56,146 bases of DNA from Candidatus Dojkabacteria bacterium (GTDB lineage Bacteria; Patescibacteriota; Dojkabacteria; SC72; JAFGCJ01): positions 1-56,146 of the forward strand of contig JAFGIK010000036.1 in assembly GCA_016929645.1 (NCBI GenBank). The letters are read 5' to 3'. Below, one piece after another: positions 32,900 through 38,278 of the stretch. The stretch's first letter is position 1; each line of letters starts with the position of its first letter. The notes under the pieces were generated by a model. It saw only the letters and a list, made by a program, of their open reading frames with translations. It did not search any database and was not told the origin of the DNA. Both the position numbers and the translations under genes were made by a program.

Positions 32900-33147
32900 A
32901 GCGCGATGATATCACAATATGCCCCATAAACATACATATTAGGTCTACAACGTATTGAGGCAGTCGCACTATGTAAAAACTATTTTTCCCTAATATTGAC
33001 AGAATAATCTTACATGTTAAGGCGTATGAATATAAGTGGAAGTTCTTATTTAAGATTCCAGATTTAGATTAATTGATGTCCGATTCCAAAAGCTCGGAAT
33101 AAGCTTTAGCTTTGGGAATAAGCGATAAAATTGTTTAACAAAACAAC

Positions 33148-33165
33148 ATCGGGCTAGCCGGACTC
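33148..33165 (-). repeat. partial duplicate of the tRNA-Pro 3' end (att-like direct repeat)
   Basis: ATCGGGCTAGCCGGACTC matches ATCGGGGTAGCCGGACTC at 33320-33337 at 17/18 positions. Confidence 0.7.
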
Positions 33166-33282
33166 AGTCTCTTCATATTAATCTTTTATTGTAAGACATA
33201 CGTAACTGTAAGCTCGTTGCATTCGTCACTCGCTAACCAGTATACGGAAACCGGCTTCGCCGGTGTTATTCCATATACTCGT

Positions 33283-33321
33283 ATATGTTTGAAAATACAA
33301 ACTTTGTATTTTCAAACATAT
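33283..33321. repeat. perfect 19-bp inverted repeat directly 3' of tRNA-Pro
   Basis: ATATGTTTGAAAATACAAA-C-TTTGTATTTTCAAACATAT. Confidence 0.85.
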
Positions 33322-33394
33322 CGGGGTAGCCGGACTCGAACCGGCGACCTCACGTACCCGAAACGTGCGCTCTAGCCAACTGAGCTATACCCCG
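33321..33394 (-). tRNA. trnP: tRNA-Pro(CGG)
   Basis: Minus strand CGGGGTATAGCTCAGTTGGCTAGAGCGCACGT-TTCGGGT-ACGTGAGGTCGCCGGTTCGAGTCCGGCTACCCCGA. Confidence 0.95.
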
Positions 33395-33542
33395 AATATG
33401 ATGAATTTTCACACTATTATAACACTAAAATATTGTTACTTAATTGCCTAGATACGCGTACTATAAGGTATCGAATACCCCATAAGGGTGATTCATTAAA
33501 AACCAAAAGACTTGAGAAATCTTTCAGAAAAGGAGATATAAC

Positions 33543-33914
33543 ATGGGAAAGAGAATGTTGCAAAAAATCGGTCTGGGAGGAGTTTTTTTCCTCCTTTGCA
33601 TCATCGGGCTCATACTGGCAGACACATTTGGCATCCTGCCAAGAAAAACCGATATTACGGCAACACCTCCGGTTTTACGGAGTACTAGTTACTCGTGGCA
33701 ACGAGTAGAAACGCAACAGTACCTCCTGGAACCCGGCAAAACAATGGAATTTCAAAGTCAGGGAGAAGTCTTCTCCATGACAAATTCCACGAATGCCGGA
33801 CTAATCTGCGCAAGATGCGAAAGCATCGCAGACGGGAGGATAAAAGTTAACGGAAAAATAGTTGGTTCATATTCGCAATCAGAGGAGGATTTTATAATTT
33901 CAATAATAAAGTAA
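33543..33914 (+). CDS. small membrane-anchored/secreted hypothetical protein
   Basis: AAAGGAG RBS-like motif before ATG, N-terminal TM helix. Confidence 0.65.
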   Translation: MGKRMLQKIGLGGVFFLLCIIGLILADTFGILPRKTDITATPPVLRSTSYSWQRVETQQYLLEPGKTMEFQSQGEVFSMTNSTNAGLICARCESIADGRIKVNGKIVGSYSQSEEDFIISIIK

Positions 33915-34034
33915 AATCCCGCCACAATCCAATGTAAACCATATTTTCAAAACAAAACTCAAGTCTTTTGGTTTACATTCCTTGATATTCAGAGAAAACG
34001 CCAGAGATCGAAAACCATCAAATACGTAATCAAA

Positions 34035-36668
34035 CTACATTCTCTCCAAAACCTTAATTCCAAGAACCGTTAATCCACGCTTAATCACCCTTGTTACTAA
34101 TTCAGAAATTGCAATTCTAAGGGATTTTTCAGAACCCATAGCTTCACCCAAACTCTCATGTTCATAGAAATTGTTGAATTTCGAAGAAATCTCAAACAAA
34201 TATTCAGCCAATATATTCGGTGCATAATTGTTTGCAGCTTCTAGTACGATTTTAGGATATTTTAATAATGAAATTATCAAATCCCGATCTATCTGGCTAA
34301 TACTTGAAGACACATCAGACGATAGTCTAGCAACATTATTAATATTTTTTTCATTAAATCCACTTTCAAGAACGTTTCGTAAAACGTTTCTAGCCCTGGA
34401 ATAAGAATACATCACATAAGGCCCACTCTTACCAGTAAATGACAAGGCCTCATCTTTATCAAAAACAATATTTTTATAGGGATCTTTGGACAGAAACTGA
34501 TATCTCAAGGCCCCAATACCAACGTCCTCAGCAATAGATTCTTCTTGTTCTGCACTTAACTTTATATTACTTTTTCTCTTCTTCATAACTTCAAGTGCAG
34601 CAGCATGCATCATATCCAAAAATGAATCTGCCGTAGTGTCGCCACTTCTAGAACTCACTTTTTTCCCATCTTTTCCTACAACCATACCATAAGCAAAATG
34701 GTAAACCCTATCAACTGACAAAATTTTTAGACTATCAAGAAGGGCAAAAAGCTTATGAAAATGCGATATTTGCTCATTACCAACAACCCATATCGCCTTC
34801 CAGGGATTAAATTTATCTATCTTCTGTAGAGTCAGGAAAATATCCTGCGTATGATACAAACTTGTCCCATCCGATCGTAACAATATAACATCATCAACAC
34901 CATACTTTTCCTTTAAACGACCAATAACCGCACCATCAGGAAGTTTTTCAATGACACCATTGCCAAGATGGTTTAAAATAATATCTTTTCCTTTTTTATA
35001 AACATCACTTTCAAGCCAAAGATGACCACGCTCTTCATCAAGTCTACTCAACGTAGATACATGTCCATCAAATGCCCACTTAATAACCTTTTTCCACAAT
35101 TCCATCACTTCAGGAACTCCAGACTCCCAGTCAATAAGCATTTGATCCATCTCTTTTTTATCTTTTTCTTCACTCTTATAGTGCTTGATACCTATCCTGT
35201 AATATTTCCCAACGAAATGATCTGACTTAAGGCCCTCGTCTTCAGGAGTTTTACCCTTAGAAAAGTTTTTTATTGCCCACATAGCCTGACAGATCTTTAT
35301 TCCTCGATCGTTAATCAAATTATCAACATCTACATTGAATCCAGTTTTAGAGAAAAGGCGAGTTAAAGCCCTTCCTATAAACAAATTTAATAAGTGACCA
35401 ACATGTGCAGGAGCATTTGGATTAATTGATGGACTTTCAACCAACATATTTTTATCTTTACCTACTGATGAATCACCATATTTTTCTCCTTTTTCTAAAG
35501 CATCATTTAACTCTTTAATAATAAATTCATTATTTAATGAAAAATTAATGAACCCATTTGGAGCAACAGAAATTGAAGCAAATGTATTAATTAACTCTTT
35601 TTCCCCATCAATAAACTCGACTATATCGCTTGCAATTTCCCTTGGAGCTTTTTTTAAATCCCCTGCCAATAGCATCGCAACATTACAAGAAAAATCTCCA
35701 AACTGAGGATTCTGAGATGTAGCTAGACTTATATTAGCAACACCCTCAACTTGGTTTTTAATTAAAAATTCATTAATTCGAGACATAATCAAATTATGAA
35801 TTCTGCTTTGAAACTGTGTTTCATCAATCAAACCCATGGATTGGACTTTCCTCTTAAGAAAATCATGTTTTGCTCCCACAGGATTGATATTTTCTTTATC
35901 TGATAATGTTTTTTTAAGGTTTTCTTCTATATCGATGTCATTAACATCTTTAGTTTCGTAATCAATTTCAATTGAAAGATTGTCTTTGTTCAAAACAGAA
36001 ATTTCTACAGTAGCACCAAATTTAGACTCAAGATCAGAGGAAAAATCCTTAACGACTTTTTCTACATTCACTCCATCAATAGACGAAAAAGTTTCAATAA
36101 TAAAATAAGCGTCCTTAGTCTTCTTTGTAATTTTTGTCCTATCGCTTTGCCTCCAGTTCCACATTCTACAGGTAACAGAGTGTTTATCTACCCACACGAT
36201 CTCCCCTTTTGAAGGTATCTCAATCTTAGAGCTTGCAATTCCAACATATTTATCATTACCATCGGAAAATCTGAGCTCCAGATCTCCATAAACCTGGGCT
36301 AAATCTTCTCCACCAAACGGAAGTCCATACTTGAGAGAATACCAGTTATAAAGATTCACAACAGGATTGATATTAGGAAGACGTTGCCCTTTTATTATTC
36401 TTTTAATCAAAGCAATATGAGAAGATTTAAATTTGTCTGATTTTAGACCTGCATTTTGGGCTAACTTTGATATCACATCAGACCATACACTAAATCGACT
36501 TTCTTTTAAAATGTCATTATTATCATTTTTCAGATTGGAATAAGTCTTATCAATACGATCGTTAATCCACTTCCCTGGGATCTCATTATTAAGACCTCTT
36601 GCAATAACAATATACTCACACAAATCTGGAAATCTCTTAATAATATCAGGCGAAAGTTTAAACTCCAT
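34035..36668 (-). CDS. argS: arginyl-tRNA synthetase with N-terminal B3/B4 (PheT/CtdA-like) domain
   Basis: ArgRS: FGDFSCNVAM, NGFINF, HVGH (HIGH), LLRSDGTSLY, KVSSR (KMSK-like), GKSGPYVMYSYSR DALR domain, LERM C-terminus; residues about 1-235: LPNINPVVNLYN...GGED...GEIVW.D...CRMWNWRQ. Confidence 0.93.
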   Translation of the reverse strand: MEFKLSPDIIKRFPDLCEYIVIARGLNNEIPGKWINDRIDKTYSNLKNDNNDILKESRFSVWSDVISKLAQNAGLKSDKFKSSHIALIKRIIKGQRLPNINPVVNLYNWYSLKYGLPFGGEDLAQVYGDLELRFSDGNDKYVGIASSKIEIPSKGEIVWVDKHSVTCRMWNWRQSDRTKITKKTKDAYFIIETFSSIDGVNVEKVVKDFSSDLESKFGATVEISVLNKDNLSIEIDYETKDVNDIDIEENLKKTLSDKENINPVGAKHDFLKRKVQSMGLIDETQFQSRIHNLIMSRINEFLIKNQVEGVANISLATSQNPQFGDFSCNVAMLLAGDLKKAPREIASDIVEFIDGEKELINTFASISVAPNGFINFSLNNEFIIKELNDALEKGEKYGDSSVGKDKNMLVESPSINPNAPAHVGHLLNLFIGRALTRLFSKTGFNVDVDNLINDRGIKICQAMWAIKNFSKGKTPEDEGLKSDHFVGKYYRIGIKHYKSEEKDKKEMDQMLIDWESGVPEVMELWKKVIKWAFDGHVSTLSRLDEERGHLWLESDVYKKGKDIILNHLGNGVIEKLPDGAVIGRLKEKYGVDDVILLRSDGTSLYHTQDIFLTLQKIDKFNPWKAIWVVGNEQISHFHKLFALLDSLKILSVDRVYHFAYGMVVGKDGKKVSSRSGDTTADSFLDMMHAAALEVMKKRKSNIKLSAEQEESIAEDVGIGALRYQFLSKDPYKNIVFDKDEALSFTGKSGPYVMYSYSRARNVLRNVLESGFNEKNINNVARLSSDVSSSISQIDRDLIISLLKYPKIVLEAANNYAPNILAEYLFEISSKFNNFYEHESLGEAMGSEKSLRIAISELVTRVIKRGLTVLGIKVLERM

Positions 36669-36697
36669 GACTACAAAAAATTATATCAAAATAAAAT

Positions 36698-36771
<74 letters not shown>

Positions 36772-36912
36772 ATCACACATATCCTTATACCAATACGAAA
36801 AACTCAATACACCACTAATTATATCATTACTTACCTATACAAAAGCAATTCAAACAAATCATCTTCAAACTGCTGTTCAAAAATACCAAAAGTGAAACAA
36901 TAAATTCAAAAA

Positions 36913-36985
36913 CGCACCTGGCAGGATTCGAACCAGCAACCTTTGGTTCCGCAAACCAATGCTCTATCCATTAAGCTACAGGTGC
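36913..36985 (-). tRNA. trnR: tRNA-Arg(GCG)
   Basis: GCACCTG acceptor; anticodon arm TTGGT-TTGCGGA-ACCAA; T arm GCTGG-TTCGAAT-CCTGC. Confidence 0.92.
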
Positions 36986-37098
36986 AAAAATACCAGAAAG
37001 GAATAATAAACAAATTAAATTTTAAGGAACTAGCCCGAGGGAAACATAATCCAAAAGTAACAAAATATATCATGTTACAAAAAAGTACTTTTACAACA

Positions 37099-37172
37099 CG
37101 CACCCGAGGGGATTCGAACCTCTAACCTACTGCTTAGAAGGCAATTGCTCTATCCAATTGAGCTACGGGTGC
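37099..37172 (-). tRNA. trnR: tRNA-Arg(TCT)
   Basis: GCACCCG acceptor; anticodon arm ATTGC-CTTCTAA-GCAGT; T arm AGAGG-TTCGAAT-CCCCT. Confidence 0.93.
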
Positions 37173-37327
37173 ATTAAAAGTGCTATCAAACGAATAGTAT
37201 TTTACCACGAAATGAGCAAATTACTAAGACAAAAAGACAACGGTCATTAACAGACCTGCATATTTCACCAAAATATTAAAATTTTGTCAAAAAAATATCA
37301 ACACACAACAATATGGGCTAGTATTAT

Positions 37328-38278
37328 TCAGTAGCGTTGCCAGCTTAATCCATCGGTTTTTACCCTAATAGTACCTTCAAAATCAGTCCTCAGGTAATCA
37401 ATATCCAGAGAATCAAAGGTCTCAAGCGTTTCTTCGTGCGGATGGCCAAACTTATTATCTTTGCCACAACTACAGATAACAAGATCAGGATTCGTTTTCT
37501 CCAGAAATGCCTGACTGCTAGCAGTTTTAGAGCAATGATGCCCTGCTTTTAGAACATCAATATCATCGAATTCCAGAGAATTTGTTGAAGACAAAAGCTC
37601 TGATTCCACCTCATTTTCCGCATCTCCCATCAACAAAAGGTTAAAATCTCCAAAAGTCACCAACAATACGATAGAGTCATTATTTACATTTTCGTCAAAT
37701 GATAAACAACGACTAATCTGACAAGTTTTCATGCCTTTTGAAGCATAATTCATGGAAATAGAAGTAGATAAACCTGCATCATTAATCCCATATTCGCCAG
37801 AGTACTGACAAGTCACTGGCCACAACACTCGAAACCGAACCCCATCGATATCAATTGAAAATGTATTTTCAACGAGCTTTATACTAATATCCTTGTCGCA
37901 AACATATTTTAAAAAAATCTCAAAATATAAACTTTCATAAACAACAGGATTCAACCATACTTCAGAAATATCGTAAAACCTAATCACATCGATAAGTCCA
38001 CCAATATGGTCCAGATGAGGATGAGTTAACACAACAATATCAATTTTCTTTGATCCAAAAGGTATTTCATCTGCTAAAGAATATAGAGTTTCGGCATTTT
38101 CTCCGCCATCTACAAGTATTCGTTTGTGGCAGGGCGATTCGATTAAAATCGAATCGCCCTGCCCTACATCCAAAAAAGAAACCTTCAAAAAAGAACTTCC
38201 AAAACTAGAAATCAGGTTAAACAATAAATAAATCATAATTCCTGCAAGCGACACTTTTTTTTCTAGATCAATTTTCAT
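37328..38278 (-). CDS. ComEC C-terminal metallo-beta-lactamase domain protein (stand-alone)
   Basis: FLDVGQGDSILI, THPHLDHIGG, NNDSIV, LMGDAE, KAGHH, FGHPH. Confidence 0.92.
   Translation of the reverse strand: MKIDLEKKVSLAGIMIYLLFNLISSFGSSFLKVSFLDVGQGDSILIESPCHKRILVDGGENAETLYSLADEIPFGSKKIDIVVLTHPHLDHIGGLIDVIRFYDISEVWLNPVVYESLYFEIFLKYVCDKDISIKLVENTFSIDIDGVRFRVLWPVTCQYSGEYGINDAGLSTSISMNYASKGMKTCQISRCLSFDENVNNDSIVLLVTFGDFNLLLMGDAENEVESELLSSTNSLEFDDIDVLKAGHHCSKTASSQAFLEKTNPDLVICSCGKDNKFGHPHEETLETFDSLDIDYLRTDFEGTIRVKTDGLSWQRY

Follow-up and report, generated by a model that had tools for sequence, protein, structure and literature searches.

A gene on the minus strand of a Candidatus Dojkabacteria contig (JAFGIK010000036.1, assembly GCA_016929645.1) encodes an arginyl-tRNA synthetase (ArgRS) joined at its N-terminus to a B3/4 domain of the type found in CtdA, the canavanyl-tRNA-Arg deacylase. 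The gene lies at 34035-36668 of the 56,146-nucleotide (nt) stretch of DNA analyzed here, which is called the window below. Judged by its sequence, modeled fold and predicted active site, the N-terminal domain belongs to the CtdA family and resembles CtdA-1. Its likely role is post-transfer editing, as a tethered module, of tRNA-Arg that carries canavanine or a different arginine analogue by mistake. Canavanine is put forward, more tentatively, as the prime candidate substrate, with another basic analogue in its place if that assignment fails. An editing ArgRS had been suggested by the original prediction, drawn from the sequence of the window; sequence, structure and comparative genomics now support that reading, and the partner-specific pockets described below strengthen the case for an editing module.

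The feature is a single open reading frame (ORF) of 877 codons plus a stop codon, with no internal stop in the ORF listing or the translation. A hidden Markov model scan matched B3_4, Arg_tRNA_synt_N, tRNA-synt_1d and DALR_1, in that order. The CtdA-type B3/4 aminoacyl-tRNA deacylase domain occupies residues 1-235 (35964-36668, on the minus strand like every part of the gene); it includes the CtdA-specific helical insert and contains the Pfam B3_4 match at residues 78-196 (E 2.1e-23). A linker of 57 amino acids (aa), rich in D, K, E and N, follows at residues 236-292 (35793-35963), with two predicted helices around a low-confidence hinge at 262-266 and a basic KRK patch at about 272-274. The synthetase portion consists of Add1, the N-terminal additional domain of ArgRS (residues 293-378, 35535-35792; Arg_tRNA_synt_N at 296-378, E 4.4e-18), the class I catalytic Rossmann domain (residues 387-737, 34458-35510; tRNA-synt_1d, E 2.2e-38) and the DALR anticodon-binding domain, given here with the stop codon (residues 752-877, 34035-34415; DALR_1, E 7.3e-24). 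Over residues 290-877 the NCBIfam equivalog TIGR00456 (argS) scores 389.1 bits against a cut-off of 261.65. The HIGH-type motif reads HVGH (422-425) and the KMSKS-like motif KVSSR (670-674), with H425 present in 37 of 37 full-length fusions and K670 in 35 of 37. The uninterrupted 877-aa frame of the original prediction is thus borne out by the translation, its B3/B4 domain of about 235 residues by the Pfam match and the structural match to CtdA, and its intact ArgRS behind a linker by the three ArgRS Pfam domains and TIGR00456. The motifs it had quoted all lie where it placed them: LPNINPVVNLYN at 97-108, GGED at 119-122, GEIVWVD at 155-161, CRMWNWRQ at 167-174 and FIIE at 189-192.

The assignment of the N-terminal domain to CtdA was apparent in sequence comparisons with chains of the Protein Data Bank (PDB). 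Residues 1-235 matched 9mkl_A (E 1.4e-24) and the Pseudomonas canavaninivorans CtdA chain 9f7e_A (E 2.1e-24), and the β chain of phenylalanyl-tRNA synthetase (PheRS) 4p71_A at E 9.5e-4. The 9mkl_A chain is filed as 'B3/4 domain-containing protein' under an entry titled 'canavanyl-tRNAArg deacylase (CtdA)', and we take it to be the Salmonella enterica structure of PMC12449066 because the numbering fits with an offset of 2. The full-length protein was modeled with AlphaFold2 on 37 aligned full-length fusions, with a mean predicted local distance difference test (pLDDT) score of 89.2 and a predicted template modeling (pTM) score of 0.71; pLDDT drops only in the linker (56-77), and residues 262-266 are the sole stretch below 50. 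On superposition by VIA-align, residues 1-231 of the model fit 9f7e_A with Z 25.6 and a root-mean-square deviation of 2.7 Å over 225 of 231 residues, while residues 1-228 fit 9mkl_H with Z 25.4 over 222 of 227 residues. The structure-based identity to CtdA is 23-26%. The match spans the whole CtdA chain, including the helical insert that sets CtdA apart from the PheRS editing domain (PMC12449066). Residues 282-877 of the model, with Add1 included, matched ArgRS structures, best 6ao8 (Z 34.8, 560 residues aligned); the ArgRS-tRNA complexes 1f7u, 5b63 and 2zue scored Z 32-33, and 4q2x, an ArgRS structure with bound L-canavanine, was also among the matches.

The active site is conserved with that of characterized CtdA proteins. 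In P. canavaninivorans CtdA, residues Y104, N105, E118 and E191 are described in 10.1101/2024.11.30.626143 as relevant for catalysis. The S. enterica enzyme has a pocket of N105, G116, E118, C166, Q173 and I189, in which the substitutions N105A, G116H/W, Q173G and C166G cause loss of function; C166 modulates the preference between canavanine and arginine and is the hallmark dividing CtdA-1 from CtdA-2 (PMC12449066). The corresponding positions were counted by hand along the HMMER alignment to 9f7e_A, whose numbering reproduces S80, Y104, N105, S108, E118, C166, Q173 and E191 of the published work. In this alignment Y107, N108, E121 and E192 fall on Y104, N105, E118 and E191, and G119, C167, Q174 and I190 correspond to G116, C166, Q173 and I189; G120 is kept as well. 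All nine residues (Y107, N108, G119, G120, E121, C167, Q174, I190 and E192) are identical to CtdA. The Y-N-x12-E...E spacing, which the original prediction had given pending an alignment, is therefore correct, and the catalytic residues align.

The synthetase portion appears in the genome in this form only. The source genome is a 1.59-Mb draft in 109 contigs, 94.7% complete, and its sole argS match above the TIGR00456 cut-off is the fused ORF; two other weak matches (17 bits) lie within MetRS-like frames. Because it is the only argS in a genome of this completeness, the fused protein must be the working, and only, arginyl-tRNA synthetase of the cell. A free-standing CtdA-like copy was not found in the source genome, and its PheT is a separate frame of 834 aa on another contig.

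The survey that the original prediction had called for found the fusion again in the order, in the phylum and in protein databases. A word-indexed search with residues 1-270 as the query, covering proteins of 482-1535 aa, returned 15 proteins of 714-935 aa, the query among them; each has B3_4 and all three ArgRS Pfam domains, and identity in the B3/4 domain is 37-52%. An exhaustive HMMER search of the 260-aa N-terminus against 1.84 billion representatives at 50% identity gave 2097 proteins at E <= 1e-3. Among the 150 matches listed of these 2097 were 39 B3/4-ArgRS fusions, fusions to TyrRS (6), class II LysRS (3) and class I LysRS (2), an amidase fragment, a GNAT protein, 7 other proteins of 310-433 aa and 91 short ones (<= 280 aa). 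Searches seeded with divergent fusions added further ArgRS fusions (38 of 66 and 19 of 25 matches, 57 more clusters). The closest of the fused proteins come from sources named Candidatus Dojkabacteria or Patescibacteria group bacterium, and one of the more divergent from Candidatus Gottesmanbacteria RBG_16_37_8; in NCBI and JGI the fused proteins are named plainly as arginine--tRNA ligase.

Both the catalytic residues and the pocket are maintained across this collection. Pooling all searches gave 114 distinct ArgRS-fused domains, of which 103 retain the catalytic Y, N, E and E/D and 87 additionally have G119, C167 and Q/E174; C167 taken singly is kept in 92. Among the 37 full-length fusions N108 never varies, and conservation of Y107, G119 and E121 is 90% or higher. 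Identity to the query in this set is 26-54% in the B3/4 domain, 21-62% in the catalytic domain and 4-39% in the linker, which varies in length from 38 to 71 aa. The mean p-distance is 0.636 for the B3/4 domain and 0.649 for the ArgRS core, and the pairwise distances of the two are correlated (Mantel r 0.66, a value reached in 0 of 2000 permutations). Because the distances are correlated and their means nearly equal, the B3/4 domain has been inherited together with the synthetase, with comparable constraint on both. Individual copies vary in architecture: P0016 (1124 aa) is an ArgRS with two tandem CtdA-like B3/4 domains (1-241 and 265-512) before Add1, and P0017 (989 aa) has extra sequence between the B3/4 domain and the ArgRS part.

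Within the order, 41 genomes were surveyed, the source genome included and many of them incomplete. All B3_4 matches outside PheT in these genomes lie within synthetase fusions, with ArgRS in 13 genomes, TyrRS in 7 and MetRS in 10. By family, the ArgRS fusion was found in 6/6 genomes of f1, 2/5 of f2, 4/6 of f4, 1/3 of f5 and 0/21 of f3. Across the phylum, sampled evenly with 401 genomes, a CtdA-like match at E <= 1e-8 was present in 19. Seven of the 401, the source genome among them, carry ArgRS fusions; the sample also contains one TyrRS fusion, one MetRS fusion, one N-terminal fusion to ProRS (TIGR00408, 531 bits) and C-terminal fusions to LysRS of class II (three genomes, one of them, G085, being that with the TyrRS fusion) and class I (four genomes). 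Two copies only are apparently free-standing, and one further match is a fragment.

The source genome itself contains two other synthetases of this kind. A TyrRS fusion of 662 aa (contig C53, locus L005, 1312-3300, plus strand) carries Pfam B3_4 at its N-terminus (64-194, E 4.4e-24), and a MetRS fusion of 939 aa (contig C49, locus L008, 1212-4031, plus strand) carries it at the C-terminus (809-928), after tRNA_bind. Their pockets differ from that of the ArgRS fusion. In CtdA numbering, the TyrRS-fused domain has E118 replaced by His, C166 by Thr, I189 by Pro and E191 by Asp, and the MetRS-fused domain has E118 replaced by His and E191 by Gln. These substitutions follow the partner across the whole collection: the E118 position is Glu in 107 of 114 ArgRS fusions, His in 11 of 11 MetRS and 11 of 15 TyrRS fusions and Asp in 14 of 21 class I LysRS fusions, and the E191 position is Gln in 10 of 11 MetRS fusions, with the proportions of partner types biased by collection of the sequences as matches to ArgRS-fused queries and the association between partner and pocket unaffected by it. 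An acid at the E118 position is kept only in pockets on synthetases for basic amino acids; at the E191 position it is kept in all fused groups but MetRS and the single ProRS copy. As far as the sequences indicate, pockets that depend on the partner in this way are what is expected of side-chain-specific editing sites; a generic appendage for tRNA binding would not be expected to show them.

A FastTree phylogeny (LG model, 200 distinct domains, 235 columns, midpoint rooted) gives a consistent picture, with B3/4 domains grouped by partner synthetase and not by genome. All 64 ArgRS-fused domains in the tree fall in one clade of 92 (support 0.86), which also includes 21 short proteins, several of them <= 196 aa and fragment-like. 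The 11 MetRS-fused domains are monophyletic (support 0.989), and 13 of 14 TyrRS-fused domains share a clade of 25 (support 1.0) with 12 short proteins. By this grouping the three B3/4 domains of the source genome represent three old lineages with distinct pockets.

The TyrRS-fused domains are joined in their clade by twelve free-standing proteins (within P0016-P0163) with the pocket xNG[AG]HTQPD. These proteins may be members of the uncharacterized CtdA-2 group, which lacks C166; if so, the fusion partners would point to tRNA-Tyr as their substrate. Other partners were also encountered. In loci L042-L051 and proteins P0055, P0062, P0075, P0091, P0105 and the P0191-P0220 set, CtdA-like B3/4 domains occur on class II LysRS at either the N- or the C-terminus, on class I LysRS, likewise at either end and in one protein named 'uncultured archaeon', and at the N-terminus of an archaeal-type ProRS (locus L044). 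The domain was also seen once on an amidase fragment (P0037) and once on a GNAT acetyltransferase (P0152). The synthetase partners are thus ArgRS, TyrRS, MetRS, class I LysRS, class II LysRS and ProRS. The broader proposal, that CtdA-like B3/4 domains are modular post-transfer editing cassettes which Patescibacteria, and at least one source labeled 'uncultured archaeon' by NCBI, have attached to at least six synthetases, each with a partner-tuned pocket, and that the ArgRS ORF is the first cis-proofreading ArgRS, stands in our judgment at even chances.

ArgRS needs tRNA for amino-acid activation, and it binds and charges arginine analogues such as canavanine. The ArgRS core, having no editing site of its own, would occasionally make analogue-tRNA-Arg, whose 3' end could then be caught in the B3/4 pocket on its tether. 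E121 and E192, at the base of this pocket, would hold the guanidino or guanidinooxy group, while Y107, N108 and the G119-G120 backbone would orient the ester and the water that attacks it. C167 and Q174 are predicted to lie in the pocket wall which, in CtdA, is turned toward the oxa atom of canavanine, and may thereby read the position at which arginine and canavanine differ. The ester would be hydrolyzed and correct Arg-tRNA-Arg largely spared. The tether would raise the local concentration of the editor where the error arises, in a cell that imports its amino acids; dependence on a host may provide the rationale for editing in such a cell. The domain probably edits from its tether, catching the acceptor end as it is released or immediately afterward, unlike the rigid second site of the CP1 type. 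A complex prediction of the core (290-877) with the B3/4 domain (1-240), made from alignments of 37 rows, returned a score of 0.00 and a mark of 0.32 ('no answer') and is evidence in neither direction. According to Hauth et al., no editing domain is known for ArgRS.

Several observations weigh against the proposed editing role or against its assignment to canavanine. The CtdA-like domain is absent from all 21 genomes of family f3, which measure about 0.7-0.8 Mb, and a plain ArgRS in a frame of 615-625 aa is present in 5 of the 5 that were checked; the module is therefore dispensable. Widespread yet sporadic in its distribution, it is evidently not required of every lineage. In 11 of the 114 ArgRS-fused domains at least one of the four catalytic residues has been lost, as in the copy of genome G010, and to judge from such sequences the module appears to be decaying in some lineages. 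Pockets of the YNGGECEVE type are found also on some class II LysRS, on an amidase, on a GNAT fusion and on many free-standing proteins, and the signature is therefore no proof of canavanine specificity. The B3/4 domain is attached at Add1, the end that binds the D-loop, and not by the acceptor-binding site; its reach therefore depends on the linker. The surroundings offer no link to canavanine either: Rfam at the gathering threshold reported no guanidine riboswitch or other cis-regulator in the window (six tRNAs only), no canavanine-catabolism genes were seen beside the fused argS, and the sequencing run that contains the DNA is labeled sediment metagenome, a setting with no obvious source of canavanine. 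The degenerate domain of G010 (locus L034) has the signature FNVYAHQCV.

An active deacylase could alternatively serve chiral or general proofreading, acting on D-aminoacyl-tRNA or on other mischarged basic residues, with the ArgRS, TyrRS and MetRS modules standing in for a missing D-aminoacyl-tRNA deacylase (DTD). The source genome gave no match to DTD (PF02580) at its 94.7% completeness, while 8 of 14 control genomes did, and a compensating role for the synthetase-fused B3/4 modules can be entertained as a speculation. Three synthetases of one genome do carry the domain, and pockets matched to the side chain would fit the editing of D-enantiomers equally well. Absence of DTD from a draft genome is, however, weak evidence, and the sequences say nothing on stereochemistry, whereas characterized CtdA acts on an L-analogue and discriminates by side chain (PMC12449066). 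We consider this explanation unlikely.

It is similarly doubtful that the domain has ceased to be a hydrolase and now serves as an additional module for tRNA binding or chaperoning, in the manner of OB or EMAPII-like appendages. RNA-binding appendages are common on synthetases, and the catalytic residues are degenerate in a minority of the copies on ArgRS. Mukai et al. read similar appendages on TyrRS and LysRS of the candidate phyla radiation (CPR) as OB-fold B2 (PMC5370408), whereas Pfam and structure assign the editing fold B3/4 here. Retention of the catalytic Y, N, E and E/D in the great majority of copies would be needless for binding alone, and the pocket varies systematically with the fused synthetase.

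Less probable still is a hydrolase whose target is cognate Arg-tRNA-Arg, or else a non-tRNA ester or amide, and whose function is regulatory or metabolic instead of fidelity. S. enterica CtdA does weakly deacylate Arg-tRNA-Arg at high enzyme concentration (PMC12449066), tethering would raise the local concentration, and the same domain type occurs on an amidase fragment and a GNAT acetyltransferase. Against this, futile hydrolysis of its own product would waste ATP in an energy-poor cell, and the Cys retained in most ArgRS-fused copies, C167, is the counterpart of the residue that modulates the canavanine/arginine preference in CtdA.

Highly improbable, finally, is an artefact of assembly or gene calling, given the continuous architecture in 14 further proteins, 39 of 150 listed representatives, 12 relatives in the order and 57 more clusters, or the additional production of a free ArgRS of about 600 aa from an internal start at M278, toward the end of the linker, where a Shine-Dalgarno-like AAGAGG stands 12 nt before the ATG (35835-35862, minus strand), since that Met is conserved in 8 of 37 fusions only and AAGAGG encodes the conserved KRK patch. 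A separate ArgRS from M278 was rejected on the former ground. A stop or misassembly in the linker, which would have undone the original prediction, was found neither in the translation nor in a Logan contig of 3430 nt, which covers 35000-36750 and crosses the junction of domain, linker and ArgRS with 0 differences; its run is a possible source sample, so that it is not independent DNA and shows that a second assembler agrees. The sequence was found in one DNA run, this possible source sample, and in no RNA run; two metatranscriptome runs from its study contained almost no sampled words, and one RNA contig matched the tRNA region only (36713-36746).

The genomic context associates the fused gene with its presumed tRNA substrates. 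Directly upstream on the same strand lie three of the six tRNA-Arg genes of the genome, identified by ARAGORN and Rfam: tct (37098-37173), gcg (36912-36986) and tcg (36697-36772), the last ending 28 nt before the ATG of the fused argS. Their adjacency suggests that the enzyme and its substrates may be expressed together. Downstream of argS is a tRNA-Pro (cgg) gene at 33320-33395, also on the minus strand. A tRNA-Arg gene stands directly upstream of the fused argS in 8 of 9 loci examined in relatives of the order, while 5 more distant fusions are without one and have tRNA-Ser nearby instead. A promoter and terminator scan of 33000-37600 found 20 promoter-like sites, where 15.3 +/- 3.6 were expected, and no terminators, hence none between the tRNA-Arg genes and argS. 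The arginine deiminase pathway was considered as a source of citrulline or ornithine and dropped, as the genome gave no match to arcA (TIGR01078).

Among class I synthetases, ArgRS is the standard case of an enzyme without editing. Protection against the antimetabolite canavanine was reportedly explained only in 2023, by free-standing CtdA. Within the literature searched, that is, outside subscription journals and architecture pages of the InterPro type, no description of an ArgRS-B3/4 fusion was found, the circumstance that would have removed the novelty of the original prediction. Term searches covered PMC12449066, PMC10018355, 10.1101/2024.11.30.626143, PMC13149037, PMC11580382 and PMC5370408: 'fused' and 'fusion' are absent from the main texts of the three CtdA papers, and in the AARS Online paper CtdA is unmentioned and neither 'fused' nor 'ArgRS' is used anywhere of a fusion like this one. 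The architecture is present in databases but, within the searchable literature, neither described nor interpreted.

If the editing role is correct, this ArgRS would be the first to carry a proofreading site of its own: a known trans-editing factor that appears, from its sequence, as a built-in domain of its synthetase, within a larger, undescribed and partner-matched set. As a Rosetta-stone case, the fusion is also independent evidence from genomes that CtdA and ArgRS work together on tRNA-Arg. The wider pattern across synthetases weighs more than the ArgRS case alone, and suggests that symbiotic, amino-acid-scavenging bacteria have repeatedly recruited one editing scaffold against a fidelity problem. 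Synthetases that textbooks list without a post-transfer editing domain would then proofread in reduced, amino-acid-importing cells. The fusions would likewise assign tRNA partners to free B3/4 proteins, for example to the His/Thr/Pro-type group through the TyrRS-fused domains. Questions made testable include which non-protein amino acids pose the threat, by what route a tethered domain reaches the CCA end and what roles the uncharacterized CtdA-like clades have. Compact, partner-specific editing cassettes may also serve the engineering of synthetase fidelity.

Among known systems, CtdA (9f7e, 9mkl) is the closest. The two share the fold with its helical insert, a length of about 230 aa, the validated catalytic and pocket residues and, presumably, the tRNA partner, tRNA-Arg. 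CtdA is free-standing and acts in trans, whereas here the domain is covalently attached to an ArgRS of 877 aa, through a linker that measures 38-71 aa among the fusions. CtdA is typically encoded in a canavanine-utilization operon or under a guanidine-I riboswitch; at the present locus neither is seen and tRNA-Arg genes lie upstream. The hosts differ as well, being rhizosphere and enteric bacteria for CtdA and an uncultivated lineage of Patescibacteria here.

The B3/B4 domain of the PheRS β subunit belongs to the same superfamily (Pfam B3_4), is likewise a synthetase-borne site of post-transfer editing and shares the Asn that is N108 here. It is distant in sequence, as its E value to 4p71_A indicates, and the source genome has a separate PheT. 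The PheRS editing domain is internal and packed against others, in contrast to the terminal, tethered module described here, and its pocket residues differ from those of CtdA and recognize Tyr or m-Tyr (PMC12449066). The fused ORF does not belong to PheRS-β, which as PheT has B1, B2 and B5 neighbors and a Tyr-recognizing pocket. Mukai et al. (2017) describe PheRS-β-derived appendages at the N-terminus of TyrRS in WS6 (Dojkabacteria) and the C-terminus of LysRS in Microgenomates (PMC5370408). Partners and ends are the same as in the TyrRS and LysRS fusions found here, and these appendages may be the same fusions, interpreted differently: there they are described as OB-fold B2 domains for RNA binding, not editing, and ArgRS is unmentioned.

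LeuRS, IleRS and ValRS, also of class I, likewise edit their own mischarged products after transfer at an additional hydrolytic site, which lies in the CP1 domain. The fold of CP1 is unrelated and it is inserted in the Rossmann fold near the acceptor end, whereas the B3/4 domain of the present ORF is N-terminal and precedes Add1. The evolutionary arrangement has its parallels in AlaX and the AlaRS editing domain, in ProXp-YbaK and the ProRS INS domain, and in ThrRS-ed and the ThrRS N2 domain, each a deacylase family that exists both free and fused to a synthetase. CtdA has been described only in the free form, and the fused form reported here completes such a pair for ArgRS.

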